Shown here one piece after another: positions 3,083 through 41,686 of a DNA stretch of 42,694 nucleotides. The stretch comes from a virus (lineage: Duplodnaviria > Heunggongvirae > Uroviricota > Caudoviricetes), in IMG/VR virus record IMGVR_UViG_2690316224_000012, positions 1 to 42,694 of that record. One strand, 5' to 3'. Position numbers and translations under genes: made by a program. Position 1 is the stretch's first letter. Every line of letters starts with the position of its first letter. Under the pieces are notes generated by a model that was given only the letters and a program-made list of their open reading frames with translations, searched no databases and was not told where the DNA came from.

Positions 3083-4263
3083 TTCACCTCCTGCTGCGGT
3101 GCTGCTGGCATTTCACGCCAGTGCGTAACTGAGTGCGGATCCGGATATTCAGTGCCATCATCCCAGCGATTGCCATTCCACATTGCAGACCACATCTCAC
3201 CGTCTTCATACATGACCATTACCGGAATTAACTTATCCGGCATTCGCTCACTACAGCTTATCCAACCATCCGGAGTTACCGGAGTTGGTCCATCGAATTC
3301 GGGCATGTCAGGACCTTTTCTGATAGCTTTAGCCAGCTCCAGCGGGTCATCGTAAAGCCAGTCGCCAGTTTGTGGGTGATTTGCTTCTGCAAGCTGCGCA
3401 GCCCATTCAAGACCATCTTTTTGACCTTGGAGATAATCAAGCGGCAACTCTTCATGATTACTTGCAGGTTCGGCACTATGAAGCATGGCAGCGTGGCAGG
3501 CATCCTCAACGTTCTTCACTGCATCTGCGCAGTAGTTATAGCGATTGCATTCCACTAACTTCTGCTTGAGATTTTCAATTGCTTGCGCGACATCAGCCTG
3601 TATTGGCGGAACGGCTGTTTGCTCTCGAACGTCATTAGGCGCTATAGGTTCTGCTGCCAACTGACTGGCATATTTGTTAATGGTAACGATAAGCTCTTGC
3701 TCAGCCTCATCCAGACAATCACCGATACCTCGCCTGTCACCGTCAAAATCATCGAAATCGGCACGAATCTTGGCAACCTTCAGGATTGCGGACAACACTT
3801 CACTAGGAATTACCGGATAGTTGGTTGACGTTTCCGCGATTTCCCGAAAATTATTGGTTGACGAATTCTTATTTTCCCGAAAGTTTCCGGACTGAAGCAT
3901 GGCGGCGCGGCAGGCGTTCCAGCCTCTCACCTCTGCAATAGCGGCAACAGCATCAACCGCGTACATGCTAAGAGGATTAGGCATTGGTTTTTCTTCCGGT
4001 ACTACTGGAACGGGGGGAGCGGCGTAGACCTCAATAATTCCATTATCAATAGGCCATTCTCCATCCTTGAGGTAGTCACTTGTGCCGTCAACTTGCTGTT
4101 CTGCAATGTGGAATGCACCTATTGGTTTTGCTTCCAGCGATGCCAGAGCAATCCGTGCCAGTTCTTCCGCTTCTTCTGCTGGCAGTACAACGTTGCTACC
4201 CGGTCCGTATGTTTCGCGCCACTGCTTGATTGTCAGCAGTCGCTCTTTGGTTATAGTGGTCAT
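3079..4263 (-). CDS. Phage protein with C-terminal DUF551-like domain
   Basis: 394-aa ORF; Trp-rich C-terminal segment (MWSAMWNGNRWDDG...HWREMP) resembles the DUF551 domain common in enterobacterial prophage early regions. Confidence 0.65.
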   Translation of the reverse strand: MTTITKERLLTIKQWRETYGPGSNVVLPAEEAEELARIALASLEAKPIGAFHIAEQQVDGTSDYLKDGEWPIDNGIIEVYAAPPVPVVPEEKPMPNPLSMYAVDAVAAIAEVRGWNACRAAMLQSGNFRENKNSSTNNFREIAETSTNYPVIPSEVLSAILKVAKIRADFDDFDGDRRGIGDCLDEAEQELIVTINKYASQLAAEPIAPNDVREQTAVPPIQADVAQAIENLKQKLVECNRYNYCADAVKNVEDACHAAMLHSAEPASNHEELPLDYLQGQKDGLEWAAQLAEANHPQTGDWLYDDPLELAKAIRKGPDMPEFDGPTPVTPDGWISCSERMPDKLIPVMVMYEDGEMWSAMWNGNRWDDGTEYPDPHSVTHWREMPAAPQQEVK

Positions 4264-7623: not shown

Positions 7624-7931
7624 GCTGCTTCTCCAAAAATGTGTCTGCGTTTGAATATTGCGAAGGCATATTCAGCCTTAACTCTTTCGGTTATTGCATC
7701 CCAGAACCATTCAGCGGCTTTTTCCTGATAGTTACAGTCATCATCTTCCAGCCAGTCGATAGCGTCCTTAGTGTGTTCATCTGGTTTATATGAGCGAAGC
7801 ATTTCGCTTATTGGGTCGCAACGTTTGCAGAGGCGATCAACTTCACTGTTGATTCGTTCGTAATCTTCATCAGTAAAACTTGCGATTATTTGCGATATTT
7901 CACGCTTATCATTCAGAGTCAGAATCATCAT
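7620..7931 (-). CDS. Hypothetical protein (103 aa)
   Basis: ORF with GGAGA SD upstream; its stop overlaps the recT start. Confidence 0.5.
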   Translation of the reverse strand: MMILTLNDKREISQIIASFTDEDYERINSEVDRLCKRCDPISEMLRSYKPDEHTKDAIDWLEDDDCNYQEKAAEWFWDAITERVKAEYAFAIFKRRHIFGEAA

Positions 7932-8344: not shown

Positions 8345-8529
8345 AGGATGCTCCTTCTGTTTGATTGCATAACGAAAACGCCTCGAGTGAAGCGTTATTG
8401 GTATGCATATAAAAAGGCCCTCACACTGGAGGGCAAAGAAGATTTCCAATAATCAGAACAAGTCGGCTCCTGTTTAGTTACGAGCGACATTGCTCCGTGT
8501 ATTCACTCGTTGGAATGAATACACAGTGC

Positions 8530-8742
8530 TTATTCGCGAGCTTTGAGCATTTCATCAGCAATAAAGTAGGCATCATCTGCTAATTCTTTGTACTGTGGTG
8601 AATTCTGTCCACCACCAAAGGAATGTCCGTCCCATCTGCGCACTATTGCTGCCATAGCCTTAGCAGCGAAGTAATCACGTAATGTCGCATCACTTGCCAT
8701 TTCTGGGCGTTTGATATCTGCTTCATAAAACTCGCACATCAT
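8530..8742 (-). CDS. Hypothetical protein (70 aa)
   Basis: ORF in the early-left operon, overlapping the upstream stop. Confidence 0.5.
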   Translation of the reverse strand: MMCEFYEADIKRPEMASDATLRDYFAAKAMAAIVRRWDGHSFGGGQNSPQYKELADDAYFIADEMLKARE

Positions 8743-9035
8743 TCACCTCCCAGAGCCTTGCTGATTGCTGCAAGACCTTTATTAACAGATCCATACCATT
8801 CTTGATATGTTGTCGTTGTTCTATTTTTGGATTGCTTAAGTAATAACTGAAGTGCTTCGAGAAGGTCAGGTGCTGCCGCTATTAAATTGGCATCTTCAAT
8901 ACATTGAACTTCCTCACAGATTGCAATATACGAACGCCAGCCTGCGCCATTTTCAAGTGAGTCTGCCTGGATTATTTTAATCTCATCGCCATCCATCATT
9001 ATTTCCCACTTACCTTCAGTACCTTTAAATTCCAT
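8739..9035 (-). CDS. Hypothetical protein (98 aa)
   Basis: Track start is TTG at 9059; ATG at 9035 (MEFKGTEGKW...) has a GAGG SD 5 nt upstream. Confidence 0.5.
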   Translation of the reverse strand: MEFKGTEGKWEIMMDGDEIKIIQADSLENGAGWRSYIAICEEVQCIEDANLIAAAPDLLEALQLLLKQSKNRTTTTYQEWYGSVNKGLAAISKALGGE

Positions 9036-9082
9036 GTTAGCCTCTGTTGTTAGTGCCAAAAATAAAGGCCGACTATGCGGCC

Positions 9083-9265
9083 TCAGAATGGGTTGTATCC
9101 ATGTTTAAAGGCGAAATCGTATGCCTCACCCTTAGTGCTGAAGTATTCATAATCAGCAAATCCATCACGATAAAACTTGCAGCACCAATGAGGCGGAATG
9201 CCATCCTCAGGACCATAGTTTTGATGGAAAACATCCTCGACGATTATATTTTCATCTTTTCCCAT
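9083..9265 (-). CDS. Hypothetical protein (60 aa)
   Basis: ORF with GAGGTG SD. Confidence 0.5.
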   Translation of the reverse strand: MGKDENIIVEDVFHQNYGPEDGIPPHWCCKFYRDGFADYEYFSTKGEAYDFAFKHGYNPF

Positions 9266-9319
9266 ATCTCACCTCAAATAAGTGGTTTGCTGCGAAAGTA
9301 AATACGCTTAAGTTACCTG

Positions 9320-9457
9320 TTATTTATCCCACCAAGTTCCGTATCTATCTATCCAGTTACACCAATCATCGACACTCCATTTTGTTGTGTCGCATTTTGG
9401 CAACTGGCATGAATATCTACCTTCTTTGTAAAGTCGGCGTTTGACTTTCTTGAGCAT
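9320..9457 (-). CDS. Hypothetical Cys/Trp-rich small protein (45 aa)
   Basis: Sub-threshold ORF MLKKVKRRLYKEGRYSCQLPKCDTTKWSVDDWCNWIDRYGTWWDK with GAGGTG SD 4 nt upstream. Confidence 0.3.
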   Translation of the reverse strand: MLKKVKRRLYKEGRYSCQLPKCDTTKWSVDDWCNWIDRYGTWWDK

Positions 9458-9643
9458 GGCTCACCTCAATCGTAATAAGCTGGAATTGATTTTCCGCGTT
9501 GCTTCTGGCGGCCTGAGCAAGTCACACCCATTCCACTGCGTGGTTTGCGGTAGTAAAGATTGTGCCTGTCTTTTAACCACATCAGGCTCGGTGGTTCTCG
9601 TGTACCCCTACAGCGAGGAAAATAGTAAAATCCTCTCACCCCC

Positions 9644-10006
9644 TTATTTTGTCAGGGGGATATCTCCTTCAGTTCTGACCATTCGACTTAATACTTTCCT
9701 TAAGTCGATGTAAAGTTGAAGGTCTCCATTTGCTGCGGCATCAGCCATTTTTTGCCTGACAAGCAGTAATGTTTCATACGGCTCAATAAGAATATCGTCA
9801 TGAGTAATTAGGTGAAGCGTTGCCGCATCAACTATTCCTAGAGCTGCGCCAAGTATCAAAAATTCCCTGCTATTTTTGTCGCATGAGGAGATAAGCGTAT
9901 TTAGCGCATACCTAATATTCTTTATAGCTGTTGTTAATGCTGCAATTTCTTCTATGGCGTCTTCTTCAATGAGCTTTTTAAGCTCATATTTTTCTTCCTG
10001 ACCCAT
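9644..10006 (-). CDS. Hypothetical protein downstream of N (120 aa)
   Basis: Track ORF overlaps the N-like gene; internal ATG at 10006 (MGQEEKYEL...) has a GAGGT SD and abuts the N stop. Confidence 0.5.
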   Translation of the reverse strand: MGQEEKYELKKLIEEDAIEEIAALTTAIKNIRYALNTLISSCDKNSREFLILGAALGIVDAATLHLITHDDILIEPYETLLLVRQKMADAAANGDLQLYIDLRKVLSRMVRTEGDIPLTK

Positions 10007-10008
10007 AA

Positions 10009-10281
10009 TTACCTCGCCGTCAATTGTTTTGATTTCCGGTAGCCTGCCGCGTAAACGGCTACGTTTGGCAGGCAAATACTTCCACTGCATTCATCTGCCT
10101 TCTTGCAGCGAAGGCTTCCGAGTGAAGCTGCTTTGTCTGCTCTGACGCAACCAGAGAGCTTTAGCGCAATTTTTCGCGCCAGTCGCTGCTCTTGCATTGC
10201 CTGTTCACGTTGAGCCTGTCTGCGTGCTCTGCGGCGATTTCTGGCGTTATCGTCAGCCAGATATGTAATGACTACTGTCAT
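10009..10281 (-). CDS. N-like transcription antitermination protein (P22 gp24-like)
   Basis: Arg-rich N-terminal motif (NARNRRRARRQAQRE); C-terminus VAVYAAGYRKSKQLTAR resembles P22 gp24; first gene after pL/nutL; GGAGGT SD. Confidence 0.65.
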   Translation of the reverse strand: MTVVITYLADDNARNRRRARRQAQREQAMQEQRLARKIALKLSGCVRADKAASLGSLRCKKADECSGSICLPNVAVYAAGYRKSKQLTAR

Positions 10282-10307
10282 GTTGACCTCCGATGATTGA
10301 CTTTGGC

Positions 10308-10366
10308 GGTGACGCGCCGGGTGCTTATCTTCCGGTTGCCGTCGTGCAGCTGCACTTCACGTCACC
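10308..10366 (-). other. Structured element in the N-gene leader
   Basis: Inverted repeat GGTGACG (10308..10314) / CGTCACC (10360..10366) enclosing the 12-bp perfect palindrome GTGCAGCTGCAC (10344..10355). Confidence 0.3.
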
Positions 10367-10639
10367 CCAAAGCCAACTACTCTTTGACTCACACTCTCGC
10401 AGTGAGCGCGCTCATGCCCTTGAGTCTCTGTCGCTTATTAGCCGCTGATAACCGGTGCGCGTCTGGCATTCGCGCTGCCTTTCCGGAGCATGTTCCCTTA
10501 TTTACCCTCACATCGGTCTGCTAAACCTGCTCGCCATTACGCGACTCGGGGCAGCATCATTACTGCTGCATTGCCTTTCGGCTGCGGTCTAACCGCGTTA
10601 GTGCACCATTACGGCACCTCCTGTTTGGTTAAACTCAGT

Positions 10640-10680
10640 TCCCGCATTTCGGCGGGACAATCCCATCAATGTTAAAGAGC
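10640..10680 (-). promoter_or_regulatory. nutL (boxA-like GCTCTTTAA plus boxB hairpin)
   Basis: Minus-sense TCCCGCCGAAATGCGGGA (10640..10657) is identical to the hairpin after cro; boxA-like GGCTCTTTAA 14 nt upstream (10672..10680). Confidence 0.6.
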
Positions 10681-10728
10681 CTGCCAATCTGTTCCGTTTG
10701 GCTACCAGCGTCCTGCTGATGGCTAAAG

Positions 10729-10813
10729 AATACTGTAGGTATTTTATTGTGTAAATACCCAAGGTATTTATTTTTGGTGAAATAATGATAAGCAAATGAA
10801 TACAAAGGATATT
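10729..10813. promoter_or_regulatory. OL operators and leftward promoter pL
   Basis: Three sites AATAC-N5-GTATT at 10729..10743, 10754..10768 and 10799..10813 (third AATACAAAGGATATT); same half-sites as at OR; minus-strand -35 TTTACA / -10 TATTCT overlap two of them. Confidence 0.55.
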
Positions 10814-10899
10814 TATTTTTTCGGTGTCTGCTTGTTCAGTGCTTTTTATGCGGGATATGTGAAGTGGATCCCGATAGCTATTGCTGCCGGGATTATGGG

Positions 10900-11289
10900 T
10901 TAGTCAGCGAAGGTTAAGACGAGAATTACCTTAATGATGTCTGCTACAACAGACACGGCCATAGATAAACCAAAGACGATCCAAGCCATAGAGATGTCTT
11001 CACTACCATCGTATAGAGTTCCGTAATCACTGGTGTAAGGCGTAAATGTCGCGCCTTGATACAACAAGTATAAGCTTGATCCATAGAGGATAAATGCAGA
11101 TATCCCTTGTATTGCTATGATCACTAGAATCATGAAACGAGCTGATCTATGCGCCCAAGCCTGGCTTATTTTTTCTGATAGAGATTTCGCAATAAAAGCA
11201 TGCGCTAAGCCGTAAATTGTCGAGATTGCCAACATCCCAAAAAAGCTTGCTATAGCGGTTCCAACCATAATCGCCCCTTGCGTGATCAA
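10900..11289 (-). CDS. Small integral membrane protein in the lysogenic (cI) operon, rexAB-position
   Basis: 129 aa, about three predicted TM segments; start overlaps the cI stop by 4 bp, so it is co-transcribed with the repressor; lies between cI and OL exactly where lambda carries rexA/rexB. Confidence 0.6.
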   Translation of the reverse strand: MITQGAIMVGTAIASFFGMLAISTIYGLAHAFIAKSLSEKISQAWAHRSARFMILVIIAIQGISAFILYGSSLYLLYQGATFTPYTSDYGTLYDGSEDISMAWIVFGLSMAVSVVADIIKVILVLTFAD

Positions 11290-12002
11290 ACCAGCCTTAG
11301 TTTTGTCTCAATTGCAACGCCTATAATCTTGCAGTTTCCATTGATTGGCACGAGAGGCCATGCAGGATTAAGTCCCTTGAGGTATTTATTTCCGCCGTCG
11401 ATTATCAGCTTCTTGAATGTTGCTTCGTTAGAGTCAGAAAGTTTTGCTATGACCAAGCTGCCGTTGATCGCCTCCCTTCCGGTATCGAAAAGAACGAATG
11501 TTCCCTCTGGAATGCTTAACCCAACCGGTGCCGTCATTGAATCACCTTCCACTTTAAGCCAGAACGCATTACCTTGAATATGCGCGTCAGACTCAAGCCA
11601 AACATCTATGTCTTTAATGGTGTATGGTTCGCATGCTTCACACCACGAGCCAGCCTGGATACTGCTTAACACCGGATACCTCTTTCCTGCTCTGTATTCC
11701 CCTGCATACCTTACGTTGGCATCGCTCTTAAGGCTTTCTGCCTGTTCTGCAACCTTGGCAGCAATTGACTGGCTAAAATCAGCAATTGAGACTTGCAACA
11801 GCCGTGCAAAACCAGATGCAACCTCAACGTTTAGCGCGTTTCTGCCATTAAGATAATGCCCTACCGCTCCTTGGGTGATACCCAGTTCATCAGCGATTGA
11901 GTATTGGGTTATTCCCAATTCTTTCTTTTTTGACTCATACAAAGCCTTAAGCCGCTTAGCGTCTTCGAGCTGTTCTGTCGTCAGTGATTTTTTATTTTCC
12001 AT
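11286..12002 (-). CDS. cI: CI-type prophage repressor (HTH plus S24 LexA-like autopeptidase domain)
   Basis: 238 aa; N-terminal HTH (ITQYSIADELGITQGAVGHYLNG); Ala-Gly site (SIQAGSW); Ser/Lys dyad motifs GDSM and FKKL; divergent from cro across the operators. Confidence 0.9.
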   Translation of the reverse strand: MENKKSLTTEQLEDAKRLKALYESKKKELGITQYSIADELGITQGAVGHYLNGRNALNVEVASGFARLLQVSIADFSQSIAAKVAEQAESLKSDANVRYAGEYRAGKRYPVLSSIQAGSWCEACEPYTIKDIDVWLESDAHIQGNAFWLKVEGDSMTAPVGLSIPEGTFVLFDTGREAINGSLVIAKLSDSNEATFKKLIIDGGNKYLKGLNPAWPLVPINGNCKIIGVAIETKLRLV

Positions 12003-12037
12003 AGCTTAATTCTAATAGCTAAGGTACTTAAACTAAA

Positions 12038-12079
12038 AATACCCTGAGTATTGATTGCTTTGAATACCTGTAGTATTCT
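12038..12079. promoter_or_regulatory. OR operators and rightward promoter pR
   Basis: AATACCCTGAGTATT (12038..12052) and AATACCTGTAGTATT (12063..12077), 25 bp apart; -35 TTGATT (12051..12056), 17-bp spacer, -10 TATTCT (12074..12079). Confidence 0.6.
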
Positions 12080-12108
12080 TTGTTCATGGTTAATAACGGA
12101 GAGTGCAT

Positions 12109-12303
12109 ATGATTCGAATGACACTTGCCGATTACGCCAAAATCCATGGACAGGCTAAAGCAGCCAGTGACTTTGGTGTAATCCAGTGCGCTATCAGCAA
12201 GGCCATTCTGGCAGGTCGTAACATTATGGTTACGGTAAAGCCTGATGGCAGTGTGATTGGAGAGGAAGTTCGTCCTTTCCCAAGCAACAAGAAAAACAAA
12301 TAG
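12109..12303 (+). CDS. cro: Cro repressor
   Basis: Track ORF begins with GTG at 12103; ATG at 12109 has GGAGAG SD; protein resembles lambda Cro (...[19 protein letters not shown] vs ...DGSVYAEEVKPFPSNKK). Confidence 0.85.
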
Positions 12304-12309
12304 TAACAC

Positions 12310-12353
12310 CGCTCTTTAACAGTCATGGTCCTCATTCCCGCCGAAATGCGGGA
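12310..12353 (+). promoter_or_regulatory. nutR (boxA CGCTCTTTA plus boxB hairpin)
   Basis: boxA CGCTCTTTA at 12310..12318, then 17 nt downstream the hairpin TCCCGCCGAAATGCGGGA (12336..12353), immediately after the cro stop. Confidence 0.6.
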
Positions 12354-12360
12354 ATACAAC

Positions 12361-12393
12361 GCGCATAAGTTGATGCGCATAACTTCTTATTAG
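12361..12393 (+). terminator. tR1-like hairpin between nutR and cII
   Basis: GCGCAT-AAGTTG-ATGCGC perfect 6-bp stem followed by a U-containing stretch (ATAACTTCTTATT). Confidence 0.3.
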
Positions 12394-12411
12394 TTAAGGA
12401 AATACTTACAT

Positions 12412-12690
12412 ATGCAACTTACAAGTACTCGCAAGAAAGCGAATGCAATTACAAGCAACATCCTGAATCGAATTGCTGTACGTGGTCAGCGAAAGGTTGC
12501 CGACGCGTTAGGGATTAATGAATCGCAAATTTCGCGATGGAAAGACAGCTTCATCCCCAAAATGGGAATGCTTCTTGCTGTTCTTGAATGGGGTGTTGAA
12601 GACGAGGAGTTGGCGGAACTGGCTAAGAAAGTAGCCAGAATGCTGACAAAAGAAAAAGCCCCGAAGAACGGCGAATTCTTCGAGGCCTGA
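12412..12690 (+). CDS. cII: CII transcriptional activator
   Basis: Resembles lambda CII (...SQISRWK...IPKMGMLLAVLEWGVEDEELAELAKKVA... vs ...SQISRWKRDWIPKFSMLLAVLEWGVVDDDMARLARQVA). Confidence 0.8.
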   Translation: MQLTSTRKKANAITSNILNRIAVRGQRKVADALGINESQISRWKDSFIPKMGMLLAVLEWGVEDEELAELAKKVARMLTKEKAPKNGEFFEA

Positions 12691-12724
12691 TGTAGAAAGA
12701 CTGGATCAATCCACAGGAGTAATT

Positions 12725-12886
12725 ATGACAAAACGTCGTAAGAAATACCAGGAAAAAGAAGAGATTCGACACCCTGATTCACCTGAGGGATTAGTGGTAG
12801 CCGCAGCAAATAACAGGGCGTTCGCAGAGCGCCTTGTTGGTGTTTACAGACTAGCCAAAGCAGGAGTGAAACATGGGCGTCGTTAA
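12725..12886 (+). CDS. Hypothetical small basic protein (53 aa)
   Basis: Sub-threshold ORF with GGAG SD; overlaps the start of the replication gene, so it could instead be a leader or translational-coupling element. Confidence 0.3.
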   Translation: MTKRRKKYQEKEEIRHPDSPEGLVVAAANNRAFAERLVGVYRLAKAGVKHGRR

Positions 12887-13763
12887 GTTAGCTGATTACA
12901 GGCATAACCCTGTACAACATCAGGAGGCATCCAGTATGGGGTATGCCTTTATACACCGCCAGTTTATGGACAGCAGGCTCTATAAGGACTCTCAGGCAGT
13001 ACATCTTTGGCTTCACTTAATCCTCAAGGCTAATCACGAATCTACTGTCGTCAATACGGATATCGGTCCGATAACTGTTGATCGCGGTCAGATGATAACT
13101 GGACGCCCGTCGCTGGTCAGAGAAACATTCATCCCCGACAACAAAGTTCGGAGCTTATTACGGACTTTTGAGTCGAAGGGGATGCTTAATATTTGCTCGA
13201 TGGGGAAGAAATTTAGCCTGTTTACAATCGTTAAATATGACGATTTTCAGGCAAAAAATTGTCCAACGGTTGTCCAACGGTTGTCCAACGCAAACACCAG
13301 TAATGGCGCGGCTCTCAGCGGAGATTGTCCAACGGTTGTCCAACGGTTGTCCATAAACAATAATATAAATAATATCTCTAATACTGACGTATTAGAGAGT
13401 GCCACAGCAGACAAAAAGTCTGACAAGAAAAAACCTTCCGTCAGCTGTCAGGATGTTGTCGATGCTTACCACGAAATCCTTCCTGAAGCGCCAAGAATCC
13501 GCGCACTGAATGACAAGCGTAAAAACCAGATCCGAACGTTCTGGCGCAAAGCCGGAGTGATAACCCGCCAGCTTGACGGGCATGGGTTCACGATGCAGGA
13601 CTGGAGAAATTATTTGAGCTACGTAGGCGAAAATTGCCGATGGATGTTCGAAGAACGCCCAAACCATCAACGCGGAACCGTCTGGCACAAAAAGGGATTT
13701 GACTTCCTGCTTAACGACAATACCTACCTGAAAGTTCGTGAGGGTGAACACGATGACCGATAA
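12873..13763 (+). CDS. Replication initiation protein (lambda O-like, iteron-containing)
   Basis: 296 aa immediately upstream of the helicase gene; AGGAG SD; origin iterons lie within its coding sequence, as in lambda O. Confidence 0.7.
   Translation: MGVVKLADYRHNPVQHQEASSMGYAFIHRQFMDSRLYKDSQAVHLWLHLILKANHESTVVNTDIGPITVDRGQMITGRPSLVRETFIPDNKVRSLLRTFESKGMLNICSMGKKFSLFTIVKYDDFQAKNCPTVVQRLSNANTSNGAALSGDCPTVVQRLSINNNINNISNTDVLESATADKKSDKKKPSVSCQDVVDAYHEILPEAPRIRALNDKRKNQIRTFWRKAGVITRQLDGHGFTMQDWRNYLSYVGENCRWMFEERPNHQRGTVWHKKGFDFLLNDNTYLKVREGEHDDR
13259..13383. repeat. Replication origin: two clusters of three 11-bp iterons (TTGTCCAACGG) plus AT-rich tract
   Basis: TTGTCCAACGG x3 at 13259..13291 and x3 (last partial) at 13325..13354, followed by an AT-rich stretch at 13355..13383. 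Confidence 0.7.
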
Positions 13764-20337: not shown

Positions 20338-20412
20338 GGGTCAGTCGTATAAAGGTCATTACGGAAGGCTGTTAACCTTCTTATCGTGGTTCGAGTCCAC
20401 GCTGTCCCGCCA
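20338..20412 (+). tRNA. tRNA-Asn (anticodon GUU), phage-encoded
   Basis: Hand-folded cloverleaf: anticodon stem GAAGG/CCTTC with loop CUGUUAA, T-arm CGTGG-TTCGAGT-CCACG, 3' CCA; one acceptor-stem and one D-stem mismatch. Confidence 0.5.
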
Positions 20413-20417
20413 AATAT

Positions 20418-20493
20418 GCTGGTTTAGCTCCAATGGTAGAGCAGTCGCCTTGTAAGCGAATGGGTAGCGGTTCAAGTCCGTTAACCAGCACCA
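20418..20493 (+). tRNA. tRNA-Thr (anticodon UGU), phage-encoded
   Basis: Hand-folded cloverleaf: perfect 7-bp acceptor stem, D-arm GCTC/GAGC with GG loop, anticodon loop CUUGUAA, T-loop TTCAAGT, 3' ACCA. Confidence 0.6.
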
Positions 20494-41611: not shown

Positions 41612-41626
41612 TGGTGTCCCCTGCAG
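41612..41626. repeat. attR core (argW 3' end), TGGTGTCCCCTGCAG
   Basis: Identical 15-mer to 1690..1704. Confidence 0.7.
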
Positions 41627-41686
41627 GAATCGAACCTGCAATTAGCCCTTAGGAGGGGCTCGTTATATCCATTTAACTAAGAGGAC
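41612..41686 (-). tRNA. argW: tRNA-Arg (anticodon CCU), argW
   Basis: Reverse complement GTCCTCTTAGTTAAATGGATATAACGAGCCCCTCCTAAGGGCTAATTGCAGGTTCGATTCCTGCAGGGGACACCA folds as a cloverleaf with a CCU anticodon. Confidence 0.9.

Follow-up and report, generated by a model that had tools for sequence, protein, structure and literature searches.

The two identical hairpins in the early region of the window, by which we mean the whole 42,694-nt stretch of DNA analysed (IMG/VR record IMGVR_UViG_2690316224_000012), are very probably nutL and nutR of a lambdoid prophage of the HK620 type, to judge from the sequence comparisons below, and would belong to an ordinary antitermination system. This interpretation is not new: the HK620 record has carried annotated nutL and nutR sites since 2001. 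The sole unexpected feature of the nut region is a 251-nt structured RNA, hereafter element A, that is inserted 2 nt after the boxB hairpin of nutL.

Results

Two probable nut sites in the early transcripts

The features of the immunity region and of the two sites are as follows.

10640..10657, minus strand: nutL boxB hairpin, UCCCGC-CGAAAU-GCGGGA (exact 18-mer, fold, inside the HK620-annotated nutL)
10658..10669, minus strand: nutL spacer, homologous to the phage 21 nutL spacer
10670..10681, minus strand: nutL boxA, GGCTCTTTAACA (direct sequence reading; annotated in mEpX2 and HK620)
10720..10755, minus strand: pL, early leftward promoter, overlapping the OL operators (HK620 annotation, consensus scan)
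11286..12002, minus strand: cI repressor, HTH_3 plus Peptidase_S24 (Pfam, HK620 annotation)
12051..12086, plus strand: pR, early rightward promoter, overlapping OR1/OR2 (HK620 annotation)
12109..12303, plus strand: cro (Pfam Cro, 91 bits; HK620 annotation)
12310..12321, plus strand: nutR boxA, CGCTCTTTAACA (direct sequence reading; annotated in HK620 and mEpX2)
12336..12353, plus strand: nutR boxB hairpin, same as the nutL boxB (exact 18-mer, fold, inside the HK620-annotated nutR)

An earlier note, made from the sequence alone, had proposed that an identical 18-nt boxB occurs in the pL transcript and after cro, that each copy is preceded by a boxA-like element at the same spacing, and that the two form matched nut sites for an arginine-rich N protein. 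The 18-mer TCCCGCCGAAATGCGGGA indeed occurs twice in the window, at 10640-10657 (minus strand) and 12336-12353 (plus strand), with no further occurrence at up to three mismatches. Its chance expectation is 0.01, and two matches were reached in 0 of 100 shuffles. Both copies read in transcript sense, the left one in the pL transcript and the right one in the pR transcript. Folding of both sites, which the note had suggested as a check, gave the same 6-bp stem and 6-nt loop for each, in context as well as alone (-9.7 kcal/mol and z -2.9 when folded alone).

The boxA claim was also borne out, as an 11-nt boxA, GCTCTTTAACA, is common to both sites (10670-10680, minus strand; 12311-12321, plus strand). 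The equal spacing was not: measured from the end of GCTCTTTA, boxB is 15 nt away at nutL (the spacer plus the boxA tail ACA) and 17 nt away at nutR. The 15-nt spacing is constant in 74 related loci and the 17-nt spacing in 71.

On the left, a pL-like promoter at 10727-10755 (minus strand; -35 TTTACA at 10750-10755, -10 TATTCT at 10727-10732) lies about 40 nt upstream of nutL, giving the order pL, boxA, 15 nt, boxB, leader and N. On the right, nutR starts 7 nt beyond the cro stop codon (12301-12303), and the order is pR, cro, boxA, 17 nt, boxB, tR1 (a candidate) and cII. The presence of boxA and boxB in transcript sense shortly after pL and after cro is the arrangement of an N/nut system.

This region of the window is 98.4% identical to phage HK620 (GenBank AF335538, annotated in 2001), whose promoter and nut-site annotations we transferred to the window with an offset of +8381. 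The "putative" nutL of HK620 (7753-7794) corresponds to window positions 10640-10681 and its nutR (9423-9468) to 12310-12355. The two share the same 18-mer boxB, boxA, spacers, pL, pR, cro and cI; their N proteins differ at a few residues, and to the left of about 9632 the window shows no relationship to HK620. HK620 also lacks the 251-nt insertion, so that boxB and N are 107 nt apart in HK620 and 358 nt apart in the window.

The N protein and its match to boxB

Two features bear on the protein partner.

10009..10281, minus strand: gene for the N antitermination protein, 90 aa (Pfam, PHROG, alignment with phage 21 N)
10201..10254, minus strand: codons for ADDNARNRRRARRQAQRE, the arginine-rich motif at about residues 10-27, predicted to be the helix that binds boxB (co-segregation in chimeras)

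The arginine-rich, N-like protein described in the note is a real open reading frame that scores above the threshold of the Pfam N_peptide family (PF25694, 57 bits against a cut-off of 27.9) and matches PHROG 271 (E 2.4e-33). As in an N/nut system, it is the first open reading frame downstream of pL and nutL, and it carries the motif DNARNRRRARRQAQRE. A search of solved structures for sequence relatives of N returned only spurious RNF168 matches (E at least 0.35); PDB entries for N peptides are too short and too divergent for detection by sequence search.

A link between this protein and the hairpins comes from chimeric relatives. The N protein of HK629 consists of a phage 21 motif followed by residues 33-90 as in the window N, and HK629 has the phage 21 boxB at both nut sites. 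Conversely, mEpX2 N joins a window-type motif to a P22-like C-terminal part, and its boxB is of the window type. In these chimeric proteins the boxB type thus co-segregates with the N-terminal 30-32 residues, and boxB type and N motif are also matched in four diverged loci (L192, L248, L232 and L250). Of 80 IMG/VR loci carrying this N, 76 have enough upstream sequence to include nutL, which is exact in 75 of these; an exact nutR is present in 71 loci. N proteins of other genera that have a DNA[RK]NRRRA[RK]R motif pair with a CUCCGC-(C/A)G(A/U/G)AAU-GCGGGG boxB, in which changes in the lower stem are compensated and the loop stays GNAA with C.U or A-U closure; A-GUAA-U and A-GGAA-U are the loops found in relatives. 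Because the 18-mer does not vary among HK620-type loci, this stem covariation comes only from the more distant relatives.

The immunity modules enclosed by this boxB pair in 71 related loci are of four different, unrelated kinds. This could mean that the 18-mer and boxA are recombination joints at the boundaries of an exchangeable immunity region, kept by ancestry and not for an RNA function linked to N. Joints in lambdoid mosaics do fall at such places, and that of mEp213 falls inside boxB. We regard this explanation as quite unlikely, because it does not account for a boxB type that tracks the N-terminal 30 residues instead of the immunity module or the rest of N, for the transcript-sense orientation and hairpin kept in both copies, or for the GNRA loop and compensated stems of diverged relatives. 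Joints and nut sites are in any case compatible, since functional nut status makes the sites good joints. Phage mEp213 itself carries an HK620-type N gene together with lambda-type nut sites and a truncated boxB, indicating that an N gene can persist as a passenger without cognate nut sites.

We also considered whether the hairpin is bound by another factor, either a host factor or a Nun-like exclusion protein of another phage, with N acting elsewhere. HK022 Nun, a foreign arginine-rich-motif protein that uses the boxB of another phage, provides a precedent. Such an assignment is highly improbable here: the early region showed no other protein with an arginine-rich motif, boxB co-segregates with the motif of N itself, and foreign exploitation would add to the use of the hairpin by N and not replace it.

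Terminators and the N leader

The case that the note itself had named as fatal to its proposal, that the boxB hairpins are intrinsic terminators and not nut sites, is extremely improbable: they are stable, G+C-rich hairpins within early transcripts, and HK620 annotates tR1 directly after nutR, but neither is followed by a U-run (boxB-L continues with ACUGAGUUUAACC and boxB-R with AUACAACGCGC), a terminator scan of 8500-13500 lists neither, and a terminator 60 nt into the pL transcript, upstream of N, would block N and the entire left operon. The in silico evidence supports the assignment as nutL and nutR for the arginine-rich N, with the layout, the HK620 annotation, the Pfam match, the co-segregation of motif and boxB, and the missing U-run all in agreement.

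Three further structures were predicted in the early transcripts.

9065..9084, minus strand: candidate tL1, intrinsic-terminator-like, downstream of N in the pL operon (terminator scan)
10296..10377, minus strand: long hairpin in the basal part of the N leader, immediately 5′ to the Shine-Dalgarno sequence of N (fold)
12361..12392, plus strand: candidate tR1, GCGCAU-AAGUUG-AUGCGC plus a U-rich stretch, in the nutR-cII interval (fold; HK620 tR1 position)

The terminators downstream of the nut sites are predicted weakly. Candidate tR1 would be a weak intrinsic terminator with a poor U-run and is unlisted by the terminator scan. Candidate tL1, which the scan does list, has a 7-bp stem with five GC pairs, followed by TATTTTT. 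The N-leader hairpin is more stable than expected from its composition (-41.3 kcal/mol, z -3.55, with 0 of 200 shuffles as stable) and is kept in HK620 and mEpX2; its position suggests that it may be analogous to the RNase III hairpin of the lambda N leader. We found no tRNA or tmRNA in the N leader, and the nut region had no Rfam match at gathering scores or at E <= 10.

Comparison with phage 21, lambda and P22

The HK620-type system is closest to that of phage 21, whose nut sites we recovered for comparison from the lambda imm21 hybrid and from HK629. Phage 21 N and the window N align over residues 1-64 without gaps at 56% identity. Matches are concentrated in residues 33-64 (30/32 positions), whereas residues 1-32, which hold the motif, are only about 25% identical; the motif nevertheless lies in the same register, with A13, R16, A19, R20 and R21 conserved. 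Phage 21 boxA and its spacer are homologous to those of the window (CAGGCTCTTTAACATYGAYGG), including the long spacer of 15-17 nt.

An NMR structure of the phage 21 N-boxB complex (PDB 1NYB) was reportedly determined by Cilley and Williamson in 2003. Phage 21 and the window share a boxB stem of 6-7 bp with a loop of 6 nt. The central four nucleotides of the loop mimic a GNRA fold in phage 21 and would form one in the window, with closure by a pyrimidine-pyrimidine pair in phage 21 and presumably also in the window. The phage 21 CUAACC loop has been described as adopting a GNRA-like fold with a C-C closing pair (PDB 1NYB; PMC12550061). By analogy, the most plausible reading of the window boxB is a GAAA (GNRA) tetraloop with C.U mismatch closure on a 6-bp G+C-rich stem, that is, the C-UAAC-C architecture of phage 21 with the GNRA mimic swapped for a true GNRA.

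The stem sequences of the two are unrelated, and the loops differ: CGAAAU in the window (GAAA, C.U closure) versus CUAACC in phage 21 (UAAC mimic, C-C closure). The phage 21 specificity class combines the CUAACC hexaloop with a UCUCAAC/GUUGAGA-type stem and the motif TAKSRYKARRAELIAERR; in their place, the window has the loop CGAAAU, the stem UCCCGC/GCGGGA and the motif NARNRRRARRQAQREQAM. These comparisons indicate that the window shares architecture and ancestry with phage 21 but not its specificity class. From the differences in loop, stem and motif, we predict a distinct specificity, as the HK629 and HK620 chimeras also imply.

The lambda N-nut system (boxB GCCCUGAAAAAGGGC) and the P22 gp24-nut system (boxB GCGCUGACAAAGCGC) follow the same logic, with boxA and boxB in both early transcripts. 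The N proteins of lambda, P22 and the window all have an N-terminal arginine-rich motif of the form A-x-x-R-R-x-x-R-R. Lambda and P22 boxB loops adopt GNRA-like folds, and the P22 nutR loop is also mismatch-closed (C.C). The note, although it overlooked the phage 21-like architecture and the 2001 annotation, was correct that the CGAAAT loop is unlike those of lambda and P22, which have a 5-bp stem, a pentaloop with one extruded base and an 8-11-nt spacer, in contrast to the 6-bp stem, tetraloop plus mismatch and 15-17-nt spacer of the window. The window N, at 90 aa, is also shorter than lambda or P22 N and has a C-terminus of the H-19B/933W type.

We found no experiments on the HK620-type N-boxB pair, nut site or boxB in the searchable literature; with no sequence-related structure either, the functional assignment rests on homology and comparative genomics, and it is by analogy that we infer N-boxB binding, Nus-factor dependence, antitermination and the tetraloop geometry. 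If the system works as in lambda and phage 21, polymerase starting from pL and pR after derepression would first transcribe boxA, followed by the boxB hairpin. The boxB RNA would be bound by the arginine-rich helix at the N-terminus of the 90-aa N, and the near-consensus boxA by host NusB/NusE. The rest of N, via NusA and NusG, would lock the elongation complex in a terminator-resistant state, and the modified complex would pass the tR1 and tL terminators into the delayed-early genes.

A structured RNA element after nutL

The 251-nt insertion occupies most of the interval between nutL and N.

10387..10637, minus strand: element A, 251-nt structured RNA, 2 nt after boxB-L (insertion relative to HK620/mEpX2, covariation)

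Element A is a clean insertion relative to HK620 and mEpX2, and further copies lie beside N or Q antiterminator genes across the Enterobacterales; the cultured phage mEp213 carries a copy with 99.2% identity. The element shows strong covariation and is almost certainly a genuine RNA structure under selection. It also has a conserved Shine-Dalgarno sequence and a mini-ORF of 1-4 codons (in the window, 10617-10622 and AUG GUG CAC UAA at 10598-10609). Pairing of the Shine-Dalgarno sequence with an anti-Shine-Dalgarno segment (GGAG with the invariant CUC of CUCAAGGG) was predicted by RNAalifold, with 82% paired and no covariation.

We rejected element A as a protein gene because the sole conserved sense open reading frame has 1-4 codons (with exceptions of 6 and 23) and substitutions in the helices are compensatory. 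Antisense open reading frames within it look like by-products of the G+C-rich structure. The junction with HK620 showed neither a target-site duplication nor terminal inverted repeats, and we therefore have no evidence that element A is a MITE or IS; an IS200/605-type origin is still conceivable. Three other N-leader cassettes, B, C and E, gave no nhmmer signal as distant relatives of element A and were discarded as such.

Neither the window copy nor 11 homologous loci had a match in Rfam 15 at the gathering score or at E <= 10, and the element is unannotated in all 113 complete E. coli genomes in which it occurs, except where a "hypothetical protein" has occasionally been called. We found nothing specific in the literature on a phage leader RNA bearing a mini-ORF. 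On balance, we lean toward the view that element A belongs to an undescribed family of structured RNAs of about 220 nt that is restricted to temperate Enterobacterales phages and tied to antitermination modules. Its members may occupy the first transcribed stretch of antiterminated operons, in the nutL-N interval or directly after the post-Q terminator.

All members begin with the Shine-Dalgarno sequence and the mini-ORF, the stop codon of which abuts the first helix. This arrangement suggests a ribosome-dependent RNA device. Possible roles include ribosome loading to shield or remodel the compact fold, stabilising or insulating the long transcript, guarding the untranslated leader from Rho before N exists, and serving as the source of a stable non-coding RNA.

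Discussion

The nut sites themselves change little; they confirm that the window is a lambdoid prophage with HK620 immunity and a standard N system. The HK620-type boxB is of interest as a natural, true-GNRA counterpart of the GNRA-mimic loop of phage 21 on a homologous N scaffold. With its A-GUAA-U and A-GGAA-U variants and the HK629 and mEpX2 chimeras, it forms a series for dissecting how arginine-rich motifs switch RNA specificity, and the HK620-type pair would give another orthogonal N-peptide/boxB tethering tool.

The 251-nt RNA next to nutL is potentially of greater value. If our reading of element A is true, phage early and late leaders in many genera would have a new part, namely a conserved and covarying RNA that engages ribosomes and directly follows nut sites or terminators under Q control.

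Nut sites of the pL and pR transcripts

With up to three mismatches allowed, the 42.7-kb window contains exactly two copies of the 18-mer TCCCGCCGAAATGCGGGA, against 0.01 expected by chance, and both lie where the earlier note had claimed identical boxB hairpins. Within an 81-nt context, each copy folds into a 6-bp stem with a 6-nt loop; folded alone, the hairpin reaches -9.7 kcal/mol (z -2.9). The accompanying claim of a boxA-like element at the same spacing stood in part. An identical 11-mer, GCTCTTTAACA, is present upstream of both boxB copies, but the gap that separates the hairpin from the last base of GCTCTTTA is 15 nt long at nutL and 17 nt long at nutR. These gaps are invariant in 74 and 71 related loci, respectively. 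The Arg-rich N-like protein that had been proposed was confirmed as a minus-strand ORF.

Features of the N-nut system and the N leader
9065-9084, minus strand: terminator-like site, a candidate for override
10009-10281, minus strand: N gene, 90 aa, arginine-rich stretch DNARNRRRARRQAQRE
10296-10377, minus strand: long, unusually stable hairpin immediately 5′ of the N ribosome-binding site
10387-10637, minus strand: 251-nt insertion
10598-10609, minus strand: mini-ORF, AUG GUG CAC UAA
10640-10657, minus strand: nutL boxB, exact 18-mer
10670-10681, minus strand: nutL boxA, reading GGCTCTTTAACA
12310-12321, plus strand: nutR boxA, reading CGCTCTTTAACA
12336-12353, plus strand: nutR boxB, exact 18-mer
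12361-12392: weak tR1-like hairpin, a candidate for override

That the two hairpins are instead intrinsic terminators was ruled out, because no U-run follows either of them and both are missing from the output of the terminator scan.

The region from 9600 to 12800 shares 98.4% identity with coliphage HK620 and with HK630, and parts of it are 97-99% identical to many other lambdoid phages. Its genes and sites are arranged as in a lambdoid immunity region, in the order N, nutL, pL/OL, a 129-aa membrane protein (hkaS homologue), cI, OR/pR, cro, nutR, cII, O and P. The HK620 GenBank record (AF335538) carries the features "nutL; putative N-utilization leftward" and "nutR; putative N-utilization rightward", which, at the constant offset of +8381 given by alignments, map to 10640-10681 and 12310-12355 of the window, exactly the boxB and boxA at each site. 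Both boxA elements are also annotated in the mEpX2 record. The nut sites were therefore already known, and our finding is a rediscovery of an annotated feature.

The hkaS homologue (10900-11289, minus strand; PHROG 6534, function unknown), a predicted membrane protein, is encoded between cI and pL, a place taken in other lambdoid phages by exclusion genes of the rexAB or sieB type. Mid-window, adjacent tRNA-Asn(GTT) and tRNA-Thr(TGT) genes (20338-20493, plus strand) are probably phage-borne, in the late-operon leader. On the opposite strand, a tRNA-Arg(CCT) near the right end (41612-41686, minus strand) possibly represents the host integration site.

The N protein and its match to boxB type

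The 90-aa protein matches Pfam N_peptide at 57 bits (cut-off 27.9) and PHROG 271, "anti-termination protein N-like", at E 2.4e-33; judged by sequence, it is a bona fide N. N proteins are mosaics, and natural chimeras swap the N-terminal motif against the remainder of the protein.

Types of N motif (about residues 1-32), rest of N, and boxB
Window and HK620: motif, HK620 type; rest, HK620 type; both boxBs, HK620 type
HK629: motif, phage 21 type; rest, nearly identical to window N residues 33-90; both boxBs, phage 21 type (UCUCAAC-CUAACC-GUUGAGA and UUCACCU-CUAACA-GGGUGAG)
mEpX2: motif, HK620 type (first 30 residues); rest, P22-like; both boxBs, HK620 type

The HK629 and mEpX2 chimeras indicate that boxB type tracks the arginine-rich motif, and neither the rest of N nor the immunity module. 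We regard these comparative data as the strongest argument for the predicted nut sites, and the nutL/nutR reading of the earlier note is further supported by the N profile matches, the HK620 annotation and the missing U-runs.

We also compared 80 IMG/VR loci, all encoding the window-type N at 95-99% identity. Of the 76 loci whose upstream sequence is long enough, 75 have the exact 18-mer at nutL, and 71 loci have it at nutR. The nutL-nutR interval falls into four unrelated classes (about 1136, 1213, 1678 and 1722 bp), which are four different cI/cro modules between the same nut pair.

In mEp213, nutL and nutR are of the lambda type (GCCCTGAAGAAGGGC and GCCCTGAAAAAGGGC; locus positions 525-555 and 1717-1747), and farther downstream, at locus positions 3124-3770, there is an orphan HK620-type N gene together with what precedes it, a truncated hybrid boxB, GCCCTCCGAAATGCGGGA, without boxA, and the 251-nt element. 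This arrangement indicates that an HK620-type N can persist without cognate nut sites. In the window, a 57-aa ORF (YYRKPRSGMGVTCSGRQKQRGKSIP; 9466-9639, minus strand) ends in 32 residues that match the C-terminus of lambda/phage-21-type N proteins (PHROG 271 positions 141-172, E 6e-10; 44% identical to phage 21 N). The ORF is what remains of another, different N gene, located downstream of the functional N, and it marks a mosaic joint.

No experimental work on the HK620-type N-boxB pair was found in the searchable literature, and no solved structure is related by sequence to the window N. The predicted RNA-protein pair looks like a routine member of a well-understood kind. Most likely it follows the standard N account, in which we infer binding and antitermination from what is seen at the sequence level only: the N motif helix would bind boxB RNA, NusB/NusE would bind the near-consensus boxA, and the remainder of N with NusA and NusG would render the polymerase terminator-resistant.

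The N leader and the 251-nt element

The interval from the nutL boxB to the N start codon is modular among the IMG/VR loci with the same N. The basal leader is 107 nt (54 loci), and variants of 194, 311-314, 331, 358, 400, 427, 444 and 561 nt are assembled from cassettes of at least five kinds. A 204-nt insert among them brings a Shine-Dalgarno (SD) sequence of its own and an AUG-UGA start-stop, another cassette codes for a 39-aa hydrophobic peptide, MLDIITNPILGGLVTTFAIGFGFTIWSEVDDWMWERKNK, and further ones swap the leader hairpin for other closed structures. The hairpin at 10296-10377 (-41.3 kcal/mol, z -3.55) is conserved in HK620 and mEpX2; some relatives have other closed structures instead. 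The lambda N leader carries an RNase III hairpin, and by analogy only, the window hairpin would hold its position.

The 251-nt insertion is cleanly delimited in alignments to HK620 and mEpX2, both of which lack it. It starts 2 nt past the nutL boxB and extends the distance from boxB to N from 107 to 358 nt. Rfam gave no hit to it, whether at gathering scores or with E <= 10, in the window or in 11 homologous loci. The element is present, unannotated, in 113 of 5426 complete E. coli genomes. Phages with homologues (77-99% identity) include mEp213, Stx2c phages, Hafnia phage yong1, Klebsiella phages RothC/D and Providencia phage PSTCR7lys, and 34 IMG/VR loci also have homologues. A 24-nt motif of the element was found in 41 species-representative genomes, 40 from Enterobacterales (genera including Kluyvera, Citrobacter, Enterobacter, Klebsiella, Pectobacterium, Erwinia, Rahnella, Edwardsiella and Tatumella) and one MAG labelled Bacillales.

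Covariation in two alignments is strong, and the element is a real structured RNA. With 29 sequences, 39 pairs in 11 helices are predicted, 23 with compensatory double changes; 96.4% of cells are paired, compared to 84.2% after shuffling (none of 500 shuffles is as high as the real alignment) and 29-38% with slid partners. With 58 sequences, 30 of 48 predicted pairs show compensatory double changes, and 93.3% of cells are paired (shuffled, 83.8%; slid, 30-36%). By sequence comparison, the element belongs to a structured-RNA family of roughly 220 nt in Enterobacterales prophages.

Family members start with an SD sequence and AUG (AGGAGG-N7-AUG GUG CAC UAA in the window copy). The mini-ORF consists of AUG, zero to three more sense codons (one to four codons in total) and a stop abutting the first helix. 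Of 29 aligned copies, 28 have this arrangement, as do 33 of the 34 genome copies scorable by script, and codon identities differ among copies. Among 78 distinct copies, 22 lie directly 3′ of a Q-like antiterminator gene (PHROG 304 or 127), where a terminator-like hairpin and U-run end a few nucleotides 5′ of the SD; 18 lie directly 5′ of an N-like gene, and in 16 of these cases a boxA is found no more than 90 nt upstream; and 38 have other or unassigned contexts, some between lysis and terminase genes. Our best guess is a ribosome-engaging leader module that may, for example, stabilize or insulate the transcript, shield the untranslated leader from Rho until N has been made, or serve as a source of stable non-coding RNA.

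Relationship to phage 21 and the GNRA loop series

The N of phage 21 aligns to the window N without gaps over residues 1-64, with 30 of 32 positions matching at residues 33-64, whereas residues 1-32 have diverged with A13, R16, A19, R20 and R21 still in register. The phage 21 boxA and spacer are homologous to those of the window, the window spacer (15-17 nt) is long, as is that of phage 21, and both nutL sites read CAGGCUCUUUAACAU(U/C)GA(U/C)GG. The phage 21 boxB hexaloop, CUAACC, is described (PDB 1NYB; PMC12550061) as a UAAC fold resembling GNRA, with a non-canonical C-C pair flanking it. The window loop, C-GAAA-U, has the same layout but would form a genuine GNRA tetraloop with a C.U closure.

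Distant relatives upstream of 251-nt element copies in other genera extend this series.

N motifs and boxBs of distant relatives
L192 and L248: DNARNRRRAKR; CUCCGC-CGAAAU-GCGGGG
Chimaeribacter prophage (L232): DNAKNRRRARR; CUCCGC-AGUAAU-GCGGGG
Erwinia prophage (L250): DNARNRRRARR; CUCCGC-AGGAAU-GCGGGG

Across the series the lower stem varies with compensation, and the loop is always G-N-A-A with a C.U or A-U closure, which supports the GNRA reading as well as the hairpin itself. Other nutL types with different boxBs, each accompanied by a different N arginine-rich motif, were seen in Hafnia phage yong1 (2560-2600) and, upstream of the locus's own element copy, in L238, L244 and L251; examples are GUAUGCC-GAGA-GGUGUAC, GGCCUGAUUCGGGCC and CCUGUG-AAUA-CACAGG.

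The one attractive feature of the system is its relationship to phage 21: on a homologous scaffold, a true GNRA loop would replace the mimic, and both intermediate loops and chimeric N proteins are available from nature. The variant nutL types may provide material for a wider table of motif-boxB specificity.
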